DNA from: a virus
Taxonomy: Duplodnaviria > Heunggongvirae > Uroviricota > Caudoviricetes
Reading direction: 5' to 3' (one strand)
Length of the DNA stretch: 33,460 nt
IMG/VR virus record: IMGVR_UViG_3300027852_000034
Location: 1 to 33,460 of that record
The notes under the pieces are model-generated. The model had not been told where the DNA came from, ran no database searches, and saw only the letters and a program-made list of their open reading frames with translations. The translations under genes and the position numbers were made by a program. Position 1 is the stretch's first letter. Each line of letters opens with the position of its first letter. Positions 22,762-28,972 of the stretch are shown piece after piece.

Positions 22762-23012
22762 TGGAAGATGAAGAACTGATTGATGTCCTTGCTCTTGCAT
22801 TAGAAGATTGTGTTGTGGAGATGCATGAGTTACAGAAACAGATTCTGATCTTAAGACAATCAGTGTTTAAAGAGATCAAGTATCAGGAAGAGAACTATTC
22901 TGAACCTGCTGCTCCGTGGTTAACACATGCATTAGATCGAACTCACAAATACAAAGAATTTCCGTGGTGGAAGTACCATGTATATTCTAAACATTTACTA
23001 GAACTAAAATAG
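22761..23012 (+). CDS. hypothetical protein
   Basis: TAATG coupling. Confidence 0.65.
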   Translation: MEDEELIDVLALALEDCVVEMHELQKQILILRQSVFKEIKYQEENYSEPAAPWLTHALDRTHKYKEFPWWKYHVYSKHLLELK

Positions 23013-23024
23013 GGGTAATAGATT

Positions 23025-23327
23025 ATGGAAGAGATGATTCAGGCTATACAAGATATTAAGGCTGATTATACTAGATTGTTCGAAGAGAACGAAATGTCTA
23101 AGATCAAGCTAAGAGATTTAGAAACAGCGAATATCTTTCTACAGGGGTTGATAGATGCTGAAAAGGTTAAAGCAGATCGAAGTGTAGAACTAGAAGCTGA
23201 GATCAAAAGATTGAATACAGAGATTGTTTTTCTACGAGTAGATGTAAGTGCAGAGAATGATAGATTGAAAAAGAAGATCTCTGAATTAAGAGTTACTATA
23301 GATCAGTTAAATCCTCTAGAATCATAG
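23025..23327 (+). CDS. coiled-coil protein
   Basis: Heptad pattern throughout; GGGG RBS. Confidence 0.7.
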   Translation: MEEMIQAIQDIKADYTRLFEENEMSKIKLRDLETANIFLQGLIDAEKVKADRSVELEAEIKRLNTEIVFLRVDVSAENDRLKKKISELRVTIDQLNPLES

Positions 23328-23383
23328 ATTTCAAAATCATACGAAATTTATCTGGAAAAAATTTTACAATCTTCATATTCCCA

Positions 23384-23677
23384 GATCCCTGTAGAGGCTG
23401 GCAACCTTATATAGATCGAACACAGATCAAAGGCACACCCATCCATGCATCATGGTACGACCGGTACACCTCTATTTTAGATCATCTTCAGATCATCAGA
23501 TATAATACAGATCATACTTAGATCATTAATAGGTATAACACAGGTATGATTCGCAGATCTTCTTAGATGTAGATATACAAGTGTAGTAAGGTTCAAAGTT
23601 TGAAAGGTTGTGTCCATACCTATGGATATACCTATGGATGCCTATACCTTGTGAACATCAGTAGATCAGGATAGATC
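23384..23677. repeat. non-coding YAGATC-rich tract
   Basis: 10 GATC sites, all in a YAGATC context, several 10-11 bp apart. Confidence 0.7.
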
Positions 23678-23864
23678 AATAGGTATGTGGGTAAAAGGTG
23701 TGTAGGTATGCGGTATGTGGCTGGGAGGGGATAGGTATATGGTAATCTGGATACCAGATGCGGGTATGCGAGTATAGAGTTTGTAAATATAGATCTGATT
23801 ATTAGGTATATAGTAAGAGTAGGGTACGCAATATGTATAATATATAAGTCCCAGTTGAGGGCCA

Positions 23865-24120
23865 TTTGCTAGATGTCGAGCATTTGAGTATGCTCCCTCG
23901 TAAAAAAAGTGCGCCGTGAATTAGAATATACTAATATACTATATTAGAAGATACTATTATAGATATTATTTATTGACAATTTTGGTCACTTTCTGACAAT
24001 TTTTGGTATCGGTAACTAATTGATTTTATTGAAGTTTTTTAGAATGTGACAATTTTGGTCACATTTTGGTGTTTTGCTAGATGTCAAGCACTTTTAACTC
24101 GTTGATTTTATTGACAATTT
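23865..24120. promoter_or_regulatory. cluster of protein-binding sites: two TGCTAGATGTCRAGCA dyads, TGACAATTTTGGTCA dyads, two IHF consensus sites
   Basis: Dyad A at 23867-23882 and 24075-24090; dyad B at 23974-23988 and 24046-24062 with partial copies at 23994 and 24112; WATCAANNNNTTR at 24013-24025 and 24095-24107 (minus strand). Confidence 0.7.
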
Positions 24121-24124
24121 TTTT

Positions 24125-24140
24125 TGGCACGGAATCTGCT
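24125..24140 (+). promoter_or_regulatory. sigma54 (RpoN)-like -24/-12 promoter
   Basis: TGGCACG-GAAT-CTGCT versus consensus TGGCACG-N4-TTGCW, with GG/GC spacing intact. Confidence 0.55.
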
Positions 24141-24221
24141 ACTATATAGATAGGCAAAGGAAATGCCGCCACTCAATAATGGACTGCTAATATAACGACA
24201 CACTAATATAAGGAAACACTA

Positions 24222-24722
24222 ATGAACACCGATCTCAAAATCAGACTAGCAAACATCAATTTATACGCCGATAAGATTGGCTATGCTGGTGTCAAAAAGT
24301 GGCCTAATGGCATGATGTCTACTGCTTCATTACTTGGTAGCGCACTCAAGCGGCCAGCCCATGTTAATGCTGAAAATGCCAAGAATATTCTTGACATCTT
24401 GAAAAGTGGCATATCCATCCCTGAACCAATGGCACAACAGATAAAAAAGGTTTTCAATTGTGCCGTTACTGATTGGAATACTGCCGCTATCTTAGCATTC
24501 CGGCATCCCAGAAAAATCAGTCAAACCCTGCCAAGGGTAGGAAAGGCGGCAACTGCTCTATATGCAGAACTTGCACACCATGTAGACATGACACACCATA
24601 GAACAGCCAAGACAGAACTTGAGCGCCCTGTTCACTTTGCCGACTTGCTTGCCAAGCGTTTGGAGCGTGACAAGAAACCAGCTCCAACAACCAAGAAACG
24701 GCCAGCTAAGAAAACAGCATAA
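24222..24722 (+). CDS. 166-aa basic protein, paralog of 25877..26410, K/P/A-rich tail
   Basis: Shared blocks LKIRLAN, WPNG, LLGSALKRPAH, LAFRHPRKISQTLPRVGK; AAGGA RBS. Confidence 0.85.
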   Translation: MNTDLKIRLANINLYADKIGYAGVKKWPNGMMSTASLLGSALKRPAHVNAENAKNILDILKSGISIPEPMAQQIKKVFNCAVTDWNTAAILAFRHPRKISQTLPRVGKAATALYAELAHHVDMTHHRTAKTELERPVHFADLLAKRLERDKKPAPTTKKRPAKKTA

Positions 24723-24735
24723 CCCACAACCACAC

Positions 24736-24753
24736 TGACACAGGGACGTGTCA
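24736..24753 (+). promoter_or_regulatory. CsrA/RsmA-type ANGGAN hexaloop hairpin
   Basis: TGACAC-AGGGAC-GTGTCA. Confidence 0.5.
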
Positions 24754-24772
24754 CCACACAGGACAAGCCAAC

Positions 24773-25000
24773 ATGAAAAACTTACTCACCAGCAACAAAC
24801 CATCCATTGACGTATTAGTTCAATATGTAGATAGAGATTTTAAAGGCCAGCAAGTTATGTTTCTTTCTAATCAAGTGGATTCTATCCGCAATGCATACCA
24901 TGAACTCAAGCGAGAATTAGCAGAACAAGGTGGATTTATCACCCGTTCAGAACTCCGCTATAATGGTAAACTTTACTATGTTGGAATCATCGGCCACTAG
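24773..25000 (+). CDS. hypothetical protein, 75 aa
   Basis: CAGGA RBS; followed by a terminator. Confidence 0.7.
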   Translation: MKNLLTSNKPSIDVLVQYVDRDFKGQQVMFLSNQVDSIRNAYHELKRELAEQGGFITRSELRYNGKLYYVGIIGH

Positions 25001-25021
25001 TCACCACATAAGCCACTATAT

Positions 25022-25049
25022 AGCCCATGCCACTTGGTATGGGTTTTTT
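25022..25049 (+). terminator. intrinsic terminator
   Basis: AGCCCATGCC-ACTT-GGTATGGGTT-TTTT. Confidence 0.75.
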
Positions 25050-25051
25050 AT

Positions 25052-25067
25052 TGCTTGATGTCTAGCA
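25052..25067. promoter_or_regulatory. third copy of dyad A
   Basis: TGCTTGATGTCTAGCA, immediately after the terminator. Confidence 0.55.
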
Positions 25068-25280
25068 CTGTGTCATGTGCTGTATATATCTTATATAACA
25101 CTGTGTAGTGCTGTGTAAGCTGCGCTCTATCACTGTGCTATGTACTAGTATCACTACACTATGATCTAAGCACACAACGCACTACAACACGTCTGGTCTG
25201 CTTAGTCTCTGCTGTATGCTGTGTACTGTGTGCTCTCTGCTATGTGCTGCATACCCTGCTCTGTGCTGCTCTCTGCTGTG
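25066..25280. repeat. polar CTG/GCTG-rich low-complexity tract
   Basis: About 19 CTG and no CAG on the plus strand by manual count. Confidence 0.6.
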
Positions 25281-25611
25281 TACTCTCATGCTATAACGCT
25301 ATATAGCAACCCCGTATATACGCCCCTTATATAGACCCTTATATAGACCCTGCTCTGTGGCAGTTACTACAGTAACCCGTATTCCTTACAAATCGAAATA
25401 GAGTCCCCTTGATCTCAGTTACCCTTATATATGGACCCTTTAAAATCTACCTTGGATAGGAGTTACTATTAAGACCTTGATTCCTTACAGATCAAATAAC
25501 CCATATCCAAGATCAGAAAGCGCCTCCTCCGGAGTCTGAAACCTGAGGAGTTACCTGTCAAGCCAAGATCCCATACAGATTGGATTTAACCTTACCTAAT
25601 CCATGGATCCC

Positions 25612-25798
25612 TGATCTAGGTCACGTAACCTTGGATATCCATGGCTAGATTGGAATACAATGATCTAGGTCATAGGAATCGTGGTTATCGGGAATTAGAT
25701 CGAGATGCAATGATCTGCCTCATAAAAACCTAAATATAAGGTTTAGATTAGGATGCAATGATCTAGGTCATTAGATTAGTTATTATCCATGATTAGAT
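25612..25798. repeat. four ~49-bp degenerate tandem units, each starting with the near-dyad TGATCTAGGTCA
   Basis: Unit starts 25612, 25661, 25711, 25759 (49/50/48 bp); shared TAGAT-N4-ATRCAA-TGATCT. Confidence 0.75.
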
Positions 25799-25841
25799 TC
25801 CTCCCTTTTAGTTTCCATGGATATACAGAGCCCTTAAAGAA

Positions 25842-25859
25842 CAGCACGTCCATGTGCTG
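25842..25859 (-). promoter_or_regulatory. CsrA/RsmA-type hexaloop hairpin, possibly also a terminator
   Basis: Minus strand CAGCAC-ATGGAC-GTGCTG-TTCTTT directly after the stop of the 177-aa gene. Confidence 0.5.
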
Positions 25860-25876
25860 ATCTTATTGCGTCTCCT

Positions 25877-26410
25877 TTACGCAGACTTTGCAGCTACCTT
25901 CGCTACAGTCTTAGCAGCCTTCTTAGGCGGCCGTGCTGTACGTGGGGCCTTTGGCTTGAGAGATGCCGCATACTTAGCCACGTATGCTGCGGGATCTTCA
26001 ACCACGTTAAGCTGCTTGTTCATTGTGCCCTTACGATGGGCTTCGAACTTGAGAGCTGTGCAGATCTTCGCATACAGATCAGTAGCCTTCTTTCCACGAC
26101 GGGGAAGGGTCTGAGTGATCTTGTTCGGTACACGAAATGCAAGGACTGCTGAGAGATTCGTAATGGAAGGCTTCACCTTGAAAACCTCCTGAAACTCTGC
26201 TGCCAACTCCTTGTTGACCGCTACAGTGTTCTTTGCAAGACGCTTCAGAATCTCGTCTGCGTTCACACCGTTTGGATGTGCTGGACGACACAATGCAGAA
26301 CCAAGCAATGCGGATACTGAGGACAAGCCGCGAGGCCAGGACTTAACATCTACCTTCCACTTGGATGCTGCGAGGTCCAGATTAGCTAAACGTACTTTTA
26401 GTGTTGCCAT
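25877..26410 (-). CDS. 177-aa basic protein, paralog of 24222..24722, histone-H1-like tail
   Basis: LKVRLAN, WPRG, LLGSALCRPAH, LAFRVPNKITQTLPRRGK; tail KPKAPRTARPPKKAAKTVAKVAAKSA; start re-set to ATG 26410 (AGGAG RBS). Confidence 0.85.
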   Translation of the reverse strand: MATLKVRLANLDLAASKWKVDVKSWPRGLSSVSALLGSALCRPAHPNGVNADEILKRLAKNTVAVNKELAAEFQEVFKVKPSITNLSAVLAFRVPNKITQTLPRRGKKATDLYAKICTALKFEAHRKGTMNKQLNVVEDPAAYVAKYAASLKPKAPRTARPPKKAAKTVAKVAAKSA

Positions 26411-26450
26411 AATCATCGTCTCCTGTGACGTTGGTATCTGTAGCAAATTT

Positions 26451-26517
26451 GCTACTATATATAGTATATAACAACCATCCTGAAATACAAGCTAATCTTG
26501 GTGCTATTATGCAAATT
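26451..26517 (-). promoter_or_regulatory. bipartite early-type promoter motif, copy 1
   Basis: AATTTGCATAATAGCACC-N23-GGTTGTTATATACTATATATAGTAGC. Confidence 0.7.
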
Positions 26518-26687
26518 CCTACCGTATCCTGATCTAGGTCAATACTCTAAATCTATACCATGGATTGCCCATGATTAGGTATTTGGGCATAGGTTGGATA
26601 CACCTATCCATGGAAAGAGGGGAAAGGTAAAAAAGGACTGTCACTACAACAATCCTGATTAATTATGATTTAAACCTTAGATTCGTT

Positions 26688-26819
26688 CTATACCGGTGCT
26701 GCAACTGAGAGTAAAGCTAAGAGTGTGAAACATGCAACAGCTACGACTACAAGGTCAACGAATGCTTTAAGAATATCAAACGCACTTATACCTATACTAC
26801 GACTTTTCAAATTTACCAT
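26688..26819 (-). CDS. 43-aa membrane peptide
   Basis: AGGAG RBS; C-terminal TM; not in the ORF track. Confidence 0.6.
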   Translation of the reverse strand: MVNLKSRSIGISAFDILKAFVDLVVVAVACFTLLALLSVAAPV

Positions 26820-26881
26820 GCTTTTTCTCCTGTGATCGAACATGCCTTAATTGTAGTACCTTAAAACAAGTCGGTTATAAA

Positions 26882-27055
26882 CTATACATCCATGATCTCA
26901 TCTTCTGAAATACCATACTCCTTACACATCTTTCGTACAGTATAATCATTATATTCTTTGTTTACCTCTCGTACCTCTATCAGCTCTCCATTTTTCCATA
27001 TCTTGTATTTCCAGATACGTGGTGGCTTCTGCTTTGATCTGTATATGATTATCAC
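26882..27055 (-). CDS. 57-aa hypothetical protein
   Basis: AGGAG RBS, GTG start, downstream of promoter copy 2; not in the ORF track. Confidence 0.6.
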   Translation of the reverse strand: MIIIYRSKQKPPRIWKYKIWKNGELIEVREVNKEYNDYTVRKMCKEYGISEDEIMDV

Positions 27056-27077
27056 CTTAATCTCCTGTATCGTGTAC

Positions 27078-27139
27078 TGTTATATATAGTATATAACAAC
27101 CGACATTGATATGCTGCTTTCCATGGTACTAATACAAAA
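27078..27139 (-). promoter_or_regulatory. bipartite promoter motif, copy 2
   Basis: TTTTGTATTAGTACC-N23-GGTTGTTATATACTATATATAACA. Confidence 0.7.
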
Positions 27140-27165
27140 GGTTTATCCATGACTTCTTTAGAGGT

Positions 27166-27194
27166 AAAAAAGACTCTGCCACTAGGACAGAGTC
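27166..27194 (-). terminator. intrinsic terminator
   Basis: GACTCTGTC-CTAGT-GGCAGAGTC-TTTTT. Confidence 0.75.
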
Positions 27195-27213
27195 AACGAC
27201 ACACTCACCAACA

Positions 27214-27333
27214 CTAAATCAATCTAAGGGAGTAGATATGGGCAAGCCATCCTGCCACAAATCCTATAATAAAATATATAACCGACAACGTTAACAACTC
27301 TCGATGCGTACAAGGATCTTTGTGATCACTCAT
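27214..27333 (-). CDS. 39-aa membrane peptide
   Basis: ATGA overlap with the upstream gene; LLTLSVIYFIIGFVAGWLAHIY TM; not in the ORF track. Confidence 0.55.
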   Translation of the reverse strand: MSDHKDPCTHRELLTLSVIYFIIGFVAGWLAHIYSLRLI

Positions 27334-27560
27334 TTTACCAGCTCCTTTAATTCTTTCTTAATACGCCTTGCATCTTCCCCACGCCAGCTACCTGCATTGC
27401 TGAGGAAGTACAACACAATACTCTTCCCACTGTCATAACCATAGTTGTCAGTGATTTTAGTCAGACTGCCCATAGCTTCTAGATATGTTTCAGCAGCATA
27501 GTTAACCTTAGACCATGTACCTCTGATCTCTGTTGCTATCGTGTGTATTGGTCGTGCCAC
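27330..27560 (-). CDS. phage hypothetical protein, 76 aa
   Basis: RPIHTIA.EI...W..YL.AM..YG.DSGKSIVLYFLSNA..WRGE.ARRIK.EL; I recall this as a widespread phage hypothetical. Confidence 0.8.
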   Translation of the reverse strand: MARPIHTIATEIRGTWSKVNYAAETYLEAMGSLTKITDNYGYDSGKSIVLYFLSNAGSWRGEDARRIKKELKELVK

Positions 27561-27570
27561 GTTATTCTCC

Positions 27571-27888
27571 TTATAATGTTTTCACATACTCTTGAAAAGC
27601 TGCAATCTCATCATCTAACATAACCTCATCTATCGAAATGAACGCTAGCGTCTTGACAAATGGAGCGATGTCAATCTTACAAATATGCGCCATTGAAACA
27701 ATCTCAGAAATTCTCATTCCACCAAAGTCACTTGGACCAGTGTAGTATCCTATAAAGATCTGCTTTCTCATATCAGCGTTATGACCTTTAAAGAACTCTT
27801 CAAGTTTAGAATGATGCCAACGTGAAAAACCATGCTTACCGGATACCGTTATGTCATCCAAACCATTGATAATCTTTTCTGCAATCAT
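27571..27888 (-). CDS. hypothetical protein
   Basis: GAGG RBS downstream of a promoter motif. Confidence 0.7.
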   Translation of the reverse strand: MIAEKIINGLDDITVSGKHGFSRWHHSKLEEFFKGHNADMRKQIFIGYYTGPSDFGGMRISEIVSMAHICKIDIAPFVKTLAFISIDEVMLDDEIAAFQEYVKTL

Positions 27889-28908: not shown

Positions 28909-28972
28909 ACTATATAAAGTATATAACAACCGATATGTGCTGTGTAAGGTCAAAGGTGTTAATATGCAAATT
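28909..28972 (-). promoter_or_regulatory. bipartite promoter motif, copy 3
   Basis: AATTTGCATATTAACACC-N23-GGTTGTTATATACTTTATATAGT. Confidence 0.7.

Follow-up and report, generated by a model that had tools for sequence, protein, structure and literature searches.

Most accounts of the timing of gene expression in phages invoke sigma-70 promoters or the sigma factors, RNA polymerases and repressors of the phage itself. Here, we analysed the first 33,460 nucleotides (the window) of a tailed-phage contig of 97,460 bp and 37% GC, IMG/VR record IMGVR_UViG_3300027852_000034, in which a two-gene operon is preceded by what appears to be an enhancer-dependent sigma-54 (RpoN) promoter, built like the promoter of the bacterial pilin gene pilA and probably served by a PilR-type activator of the host. 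We place the probability of this reading, which rests on sequence comparison, at about 0.7.

Among the closest described systems is the control of pilA by PilS-PilR and RpoN in Pseudomonas aeruginosa, Myxococcus xanthus and Geobacter sulfurreducens (PMC6058289, PMC6211767). PilR acts with sigma-54 at pilA, its phosphorylation is set by PilS according to the pool of pilin in the inner membrane, and a pilA mutant has hyperactive PilR (PMC6058289). In commensal Neisseria, RpoN, integration host factor (IHF) and the PilR-like activator Npa have been described, in the cited passage, as acting together at pilE (PMC6528607), and Geobacter without IHF subunits has no detectable PilA, an effect that its authors link in part to a repressor (PMC7962754). 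The phage locus shares with pilA-type control the same -24/-12 promoter and a 17-bp GTGACAA-N3-TTGTCAC box at a phased distance from it, a box that precedes pilin genes in at least 63 of the bacterial genomes scanned. Unlike pilA-type control, it lies in a phage, precedes two orphan non-pilin genes, has no activator encoded nearby, and carries two to three boxes, two exact IHF sites and a dyad seen only in the phage (dyad A) between a box and an IHF site. As far as the passage on pilE describes it, that promoter follows the same three-part logic of activator site, IHF site and sigma-54 promoter, but it belongs to a bacterial chromosomal pilin gene (PMC6528607).

A phage promoter read by host sigma-54 has its precedent in Pseudomonas phage YuA, where the sigma-54-like promoter P015 was placed at a mapped transcription start, in agreement with what a promoter trap had indicated before (work of Ceyssens et al. 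2008, cited in a passage of bioRxiv 10.1101/2023.10.13.562163). That passage names no activator or enhancer for YuA, whereas the locus described here has a putative PilR-type enhancer and IHF sites. The use of sigma-54 by a phage is already known from YuA, at least in the terms of that passage, and the new element here would be the named type of activator; a full-text search of the literature turned up no phage promoter linked to PilR or another named enhancer-binding protein.

A preliminary description of this DNA had proposed a sigma-54-like -24/-12 motif upstream of the gene for a 166-aa protein, and our analysis found it as TGGCACGGAATCTGCT at 24125-24140 on the plus strand, with the GG at 24126-27 and the GC at 24138-39. 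The element is intergenic, the first gene of the operon starting 82 nt downstream, and it predicts a transcription start at about 24149-24152 on the same strand; 24151 is used as +1 for relative positions. TGGCACGGAATCTGCT has one mismatch to TGGCAC-N5-TTGC, at the weakly conserved -15 position, and fits TGGCACG-N4-TTGC, the consensus of 63 bacterial pilin promoters. The form TGGCACG-N4-YTGCW occurs once in the 97,460-bp contig, and the sigma-54 pattern with one mismatch allowed matches once in the 33-kb window, against 0.13 matches expected from shuffled sequences.

Upstream of the promoter, the repeated TGAC-N7-GTCA dyad reported earlier (dyad B) is present as TGACAATTTTGGTCA at 23974-88 and 24047-61, together with a degenerate copy at 23994-24008, and these dyads proved to be 17-bp boxes of the form GTGACAA-N3-TTGTCAC. 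Box B2 (GTGACAATTTTGGTCAC, 24046-24062, centre at about -97) stands 62 nt before TGGCAC and is an exact match to the pattern used in our genome scan. Box B1 (TTGACAATTTTGGTCAC, 23973-23989, centre at about -170) has one mismatch and lies 73 bp, or 7 helical turns, upstream of B2, while the degenerate box B1' (23993-24009, about -150) follows 20 bp after B1 with its left half, TGACAAT, intact. With at most one mismatch, the 17-bp pattern GTGACAA-N3-T-N-GTCAC gave 3 strand-hits at 2 sites, against 0.03 in shuffles. At -97, -150 and -170, the boxes are within the range of about 80-200 bp expected for upstream activator sites.

The two perfect IHF consensus sites claimed for this region are also there, as exact WATCAANNNNTTR on the minus strand. 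Site 2 (AATCAACGAGTTA, 24095-24107, -56 to -44) is located between the boxes and the promoter, and site 1 (AATCAATTAGTTA, 24013-24025, -138 to -126) between B1' and B2, inside a 28-nt direct repeat shared with site 2 (repeat family D9). The consensus occurs 12 times in 97 kb, both strands included, and two of these occurrences fall within 95 bp here. The placement of a predicted IHF site between putative enhancer and promoter is that of the sigma-54 architecture. Because boxes, IHF sites and -24/-12 element come in the right order and at the right distances, we read the region as a promoter that would depend on host PilR and RpoN.

The comparison with bacteria was based on one genome per prokaryotic species (185,579 bacterial and archaeal genomes), scanned for GTGACAA-N3-T-N-GTCAC lying 50-80 nt ahead of TGGCAY-N5-YTGC. 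The combination was present in at least 120 bacterial loci, compared with about 2 chance matches estimated from base counts, and those listed span Pseudomonadota, Thermodesulfobacteriota, Myxococcota, Acidobacteriota and other phyla. A prepilin start (GFTLIEL-type) follows within 500 nt downstream in 63 of the 120 loci listed, and all 4 downstream proteins tested exceed the cut-off of TIGR02532, the prepilin N-terminal domain. The gene order pilS-pilR-pilA is known from Myxococcus and Geobacter, and several of our loci (e.g. L105 and L132) are like this arrangement, with the gene of an NtrC-family sigma-54 response regulator ending just upstream of the box.

The distance between box and promoter in the 63 pilin loci falls into discrete classes of 50-52 nt (5 loci), 59-64 nt (10), 70-75 nt (43) and 79-80 nt (5), with none between them, and the 62-nt gap of the phage belongs to the 59-64 nt class. 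Steps of about 10 bp indicate that the box has to lie on one helical face relative to the promoter, which is what an enhancer-binding protein touching the holoenzyme would be expected to show. In Oceanicoccus, a perfect box was found 119 nt upstream of a sigma-54 motif and a pilin gene. As a negative control, dyad A was scanned for at equal stringency, with the sigma-54 motif 20-50 nt beyond it, and gave no match in 596 Gb of bacterial genomes; therefore the box scan does not produce such lists by itself. When an exact TTGATT was required between box and promoter, 2 loci only were left, and they gave no host clue.

Conservation could be followed in one related phage lineage, present on two JGI contigs (L003 and L004), which encodes a relative of the 166-aa protein (P0002, 69% identity). 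The upstream region of about 900 bp is 58% identical between the window and L003, and the stretch from the second box to the start region, about 110 bp around the promoter, is about 85% identical. The L003 promoter reads TGGCATGGCATCTGCA and has the same GG-GC spacing as the window; the three differences affect -21, which is moderately conserved, one free position and the W after the GC. The counterpart of B1 in L003 is a perfect GTGACAAAATTTGTCAC, the left half of B1' is kept, and both IHF sites retain every consensus position while their free N4 positions differ. The B1-B2 distance is 73 bp in both lineages, and the gap between box and promoter is 62 nt in both, even though the whole intergenic region is only 58% identical. 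The idea of a sigma-54 promoter with IHF and an upstream enhancer is thus supported on two sides, by the box found at phased distances before pilin sigma-54 promoters in at least 63 bacterial genomes and by the 62-nt gap kept in the two phage lineages.

The same comparison bears on the suspicion, raised in the preliminary description, that the GGCAC could be a degenerate copy of the TGAC dyad. In L003 the box arms are TTGTCAC but the promoter still has TGGCAT, and the TTGACA that stands left of the promoter in the window is gone; therefore, the -24 element is held independently of the boxes, and the suspicion is weakened. Conservation also bears on whether the region might be host DNA that the phage captured and that is now without function, or a chance assembly of motifs. 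The bacterial and phage boxes and IHF sites are alike enough to suggest capture of a host promoter, but all elements and spacings are kept across lineages with 69% protein and 58% intergenic identity, and a box (0.03 expected) and a promoter (0.13, in the window) would very rarely coincide at a phased distance by chance. We consider a remnant or an accident very improbable.

The main competing explanation for the promoter itself is a weak sigma-70 promoter of the extended -10 type (TG-n-TACTAT, 24137-24145), in which case the -24/-12 match would be incidental, and helix-turn-helix (HTH) proteins of phage or host would use dyads A and B as operators or activator sites. The sequence TGCTACTAT does fit TGnTAnnnT. 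The ordinary promoters of this phage are of sigma-70 type (TTGTnn-16/17-TATAMT), often followed by TATATAG around the start, and the studied promoter shares this TATATAG, with the -24/-12 element replacing their -35 and -10. IHF sites and operators are, moreover, common in phage control regions of the sigma-70 type. However, no sigma-70 -35 hexamer is found at a usable distance (16-18 bp), and in L003 the register is broken, TG-n being followed by ATATAT, without the A at position 2 of TATAAT. A sigma-70 promoter would also leave unexplained why the gap is exactly 62 nt, which corresponds to a populated phase class of bacterial pilin sigma-54 promoters. We rank this explanation as unlikely; a weak overlapping promoter is possible.

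A hairpin starts 4 bases after TATATAG in both phages, weak in the window but strong (z = -4.2) in L003. Its position fits a 5' end near 24150 and does not discriminate between sigma factors. A scan for the promoter core together with TATATAG gave no match in viral contigs and one unrelated bacterial locus.

The preliminary description had left open whether the activating signal was that of a host or of a phage bacterial enhancer-binding protein (bEBP). The phage alternative did not hold in the 97 kb searched (about 74% of the phage by completeness estimate), as the only match to PF00158 (Sigma54_activat) scored 14 bits and belongs to the clamp loader, while PF04552, PF02954 and PF00216 had no match, leaving no RpoN, Fis-type HTH or IHF/HU domain. 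With no bEBP or RpoN encoded there, the signal would come from the host, and the host pilus regulator PilR probably decides when the two-gene operon is switched on.

In the mechanism that we propose, host sigma-54 holoenzyme would sit as a closed complex on TGGCAC-N5-CTGC (24125-24139), and a PilR-type enhancer-binding protein of the host would bind B1, B1' and B2; in bacteria, PilR is the response regulator paired with the kinase PilS, which senses pilin. IHF would bend the DNA at -50, and also at -132, so that the activator oligomer could touch the holoenzyme, and ATP hydrolysis by the activator would open the promoter. The transcript would then run from near 24150 through the genes for the 166-aa and 75-aa proteins and end at the terminator at 25022-25051. 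Dyad A, centred at -276 and -68 and present again after the terminator, would serve a phage protein as an operator, probably overriding or insulating the host input. What the sequences show is the motifs with their rarity, their conservation in a second phage lineage, and the match of boxes and phasing to bacterial pilin promoters; that RpoN, PilR and IHF bind, where transcription starts and what purpose the arrangement serves are inferences.

Several points weigh against this reading, apart from the extended -10-like sequence that overlaps the -12 region. About half of the bacterial box and sigma-54 loci listed have no pilin downstream. More than 25 of those listed, in Steroidobacteraceae and other Gammaproteobacteria, have the 17-bp box 56-57 nt before the sigma-54 motif and no pilin behind it (L053, L054, L058, L063, L069, L073, L078, L110, L116, L134, L135 and others); they precede a small acidic ORF (MTEEVIAxLMPD...) or a DnaJ-like gene. 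This class is out of phase with the pilin classes and may answer to a different, related activator. Given the loci without pilin and the 56-57-nt class, "PilR-type" is a safer label than "PilR". Nor is the PilR consensus given in the literature, TGT-N11-ACA (quoted in PMC8035640), written in this palindromic form.

The conservation of GG and GC is itself weakly specific, since we estimate at about p = 0.1 the chance that all three changes in L003 would miss the critical bases, and conservation as a whole rests on two phage lineages only, which makes it suggestive and not decisive. The presence of rpoN, pilSR and ihf in the host is presumed. The contig also carries genes for 7-deazaguanine DNA modification, and guanines modified in the major groove could make GG/GC and the boxes harder to recognise. 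Both the start site and RpoN dependence are predictions.

The second dyad of the region has a different standing. As claimed earlier, dyad A (TGCTAGATGTCRAGCA) is present in three copies: A1 (TGCTAGATGTCGAGCA, 23867-23882, -284 to -269), A2 (TGCTAGATGTCAAGCA, 24075-24090, -76 to -61), which lies between box B2 and IHF site 2, and A3 (TGCTTGATGTCTAGCA, 25052-25067), directly after the operon terminator. A1 is kept in L003, the core of A2 (GCTAGATGTCAAGC) is identical there, and L003 has TTGCTTGATATCTAGCA after its own terminator, at the place equivalent to A3. Besides one match with 3 mismatches inside the gene for the 166-aa protein, these are the only copies in 97 kb. The preliminary description treated the two dyad types alike, and this was borne out for dyad B, which has bacterial counterparts, but not for dyad A, for which the bacterial scan found none beside a sigma-54 motif. 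In viral contigs, a dyad A 17-mer gave 8 single matches that were taken as chance, and a scan of metagenome contigs, limited to the box combined with dyad A, gave no match. Dyad A is probably a phage-specific operator, bound by a protein of the phage. A protein on A2 could block looping, and the three copies bracket the operon.

The number of boxes raises another alternative, in which their main effect would be that of a PilR sink: the many copies made as phage DNA replicates would titrate the regulator of the host and reduce the amount of pilin made, which might, for example, keep out superinfecting phages that depend on pili, and transcription of the operon would be secondary or absent. The phage has two full boxes and a half box per genome, while 55 of the 63 listed pilin loci have a single box and 5 of the 63 have extra box-like copies 21-23 bp from the main one. 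Interference of phages with type IV pili and PilS signalling is also described in the cited passage of PMC10714779. However, a sink would need neither a conserved -24/-12 element, nor IHF sites, nor exact phasing to the promoter, and we find it quite improbable that this is the main function of the boxes.

The operon that this putative sigma-54 promoter would drive agrees with the earlier account of a two-gene operon and its terminator: two open reading frames (ORFs) are followed by an intrinsic terminator. Gene 1 (24222-24722, plus strand) codes for the 166-aa protein, all-helical with a basic C-terminal tail, and has an AAGGA ribosome-binding site at 24210-14. Gene 2 (24773-25000, plus strand) is an ORF of 75 aa, and L003 has a 75-aa gene at the same place. 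The terminator (25022-25051, plus strand) consists of a 10-pair stem (25022-25045) and a T run, with the L003 terminator again at the same place. Neither protein has a match in Pfam or PHROG. A profile search of 1.84 billion proteins found, beyond the two phage lineages, only two long proteins with partial repeat-like matches to the 166-aa protein, and no close relative of it was found in isolated phages or by protein search in IMG/VR. Its structure model is of modest quality (pLDDT 71); with it, Foldseek found nothing significant in the PDB (E >= 0.2), a wide VIA-align search had a best Z of 3.6, and the Atlas search gave nothing by features and TM <= 0.36 by structure.

A convergent paralog of the 166-aa protein is encoded 1.2 kb downstream in the same phage (25877-26413, minus strand; 47% identity over 124 aa). 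Its promoter region (26440-26500) has one of the ordinary sigma-70-type promoters, TTGTAT-16-TATACT, and a perfect 16-bp palindrome, GTAGCAAATTTGCTAC, stands in its start region at 26440-26455, with arms kept in L003 as GTAGC-N6-GCTAC. From this sigma-70-type promoter and palindrome it follows that the two paralogs are under different control. The gene-free stretch between the paralogs contains four iteron-like repeats of the form (CC/AA)TGATCTAGGTCA (25610-25770 and 26528-26541), and similar repeats are found at the equivalent position in L003.

GATC is clustered in the non-coding flanks of the operon, with 16/kb at 23000-24000 and 13/kb at 25000-26000 compared with 4.2/kb in the contig. The GATC clusters and IHF sites were considered as signs of a replication origin, a reading that was set aside with only 2 weak DnaA-box-like matches nearby. 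The approximately 530 bp upstream of A1 (23328-23860) have no convincing ORF, contain short repeats (AGATC-rich, ATAGGTAT) and are conserved in patches in L003. An Rfam scan of 23000-27700 returned one sub-threshold snoRNA-like match, which was taken as chance.

Two motif classes are repeated before other genes of the phage. The promoter-like GGTTGNTATATACTWTATATAG lies upstream of small genes in the window at 26456-26476, 27081-27101 and 28911-28931, all on the minus strand, and occurs further along the contig (G000) at 44105, 45702 and 51392 on the plus strand. A second class, TTGTTT-N7-AGGTATACTT-TATAAT, is found at contig positions 34817, 37522, 39223 and 59815. Both look like sigma-70-type promoter families of the phage's own.

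Variants of the box with a longer spacer were seen in bacteria as well. An 18-bp version, GTGACAA-N4-TTGTCAC, occurs at seven loci (L019-L025) of one marine gammaproteobacterial clade (HTCC2143, Oceanicoccus, Spongiibacteraceae), in every case between fliK and fliL, with the sigma-54 promoter of fliLMNOPQR at a constant distance of 57-58 nt downstream and an IHF-like site 17 nt after the box. Its flanks differ between species yet stay complementary, and a hairpin, for instance the terminator of fliK, is another possible identity. The Spongiibacteraceae clade was considered as a host and dropped when the 17-bp box proved widespread. Near-perfect 18-bp boxes also occur at L029:845-862 and L030:1501-1518, within a conserved leader, and a long, open-ended ORF of 450 aa with a signal-peptide-like start, probably a transporter, begins about 150 nt further on; the boxes were not retained as regulator sites of this kind, as no nearby sigma-54 motif passed the filter. 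On a bacterial metagenome contig (L172:2200-2460), TGGCATGGTATCTGCACATATATAG precedes a 24-aa ORF resembling the PQQ precursor peptide PqqA and has two AACCAGAAATCTGGTT palindromes upstream, and this may be another enhancer-type sigma-54 promoter, unrelated to the phage.

The phage nature of the contig follows from its PHROG matches, which include a ribonucleotide reductase, an SbcC-like nuclease and a primase, together with DNA polymerase, clamp, clamp loader, a UvsX-like recombinase, helicases, ligase and a DpdA-like transglycosylase; QueD- and QueE-like proteins are also encoded. The only sequencing run containing this DNA is of a marine metagenome, no RNA run being listed for it, and the 166-aa protein is also on record on a 158-kb contig. 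No close DNA relative of the region was found in isolated phages. The closest of them are distant, with 34-36% amino acid identity in the polymerase and SbcC, and infect Vibrio and Edwardsiella; these distant relatives, along with strong Shine-Dalgarno sites, only suggest a gammaproteobacterial host.

Examination of this promoter offers a clean and testable PilR-type box, GTGACAA-N3-TTGTCAC, phased in steps of about 10 bp from the -24 element. It also gives a clue to the host of an uncultured 158-kb marine phage, which should possess RpoN, IHF and PilSR. More speculatively, and with doubt on our part, the phage may read the pilus status of its host through PilS-PilR, where depletion of pilin in the membrane would report active piliation or surface contact, and respond by turning on one member of a pair of paralogous proteins with basic tails, encoded on either side of a repeat platform, so that it would choose between two programmes by the state of its likely receptor. 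The extra boxes might also draw off PilR and stop pilin from being made, and the dyad A protein would be the veto of the phage. If the host-PilR and RpoN reading of the promoter is true, a direct line would run from a bacterial surface-sensing two-component system, by way of sigma-54, into the programme of a phage.

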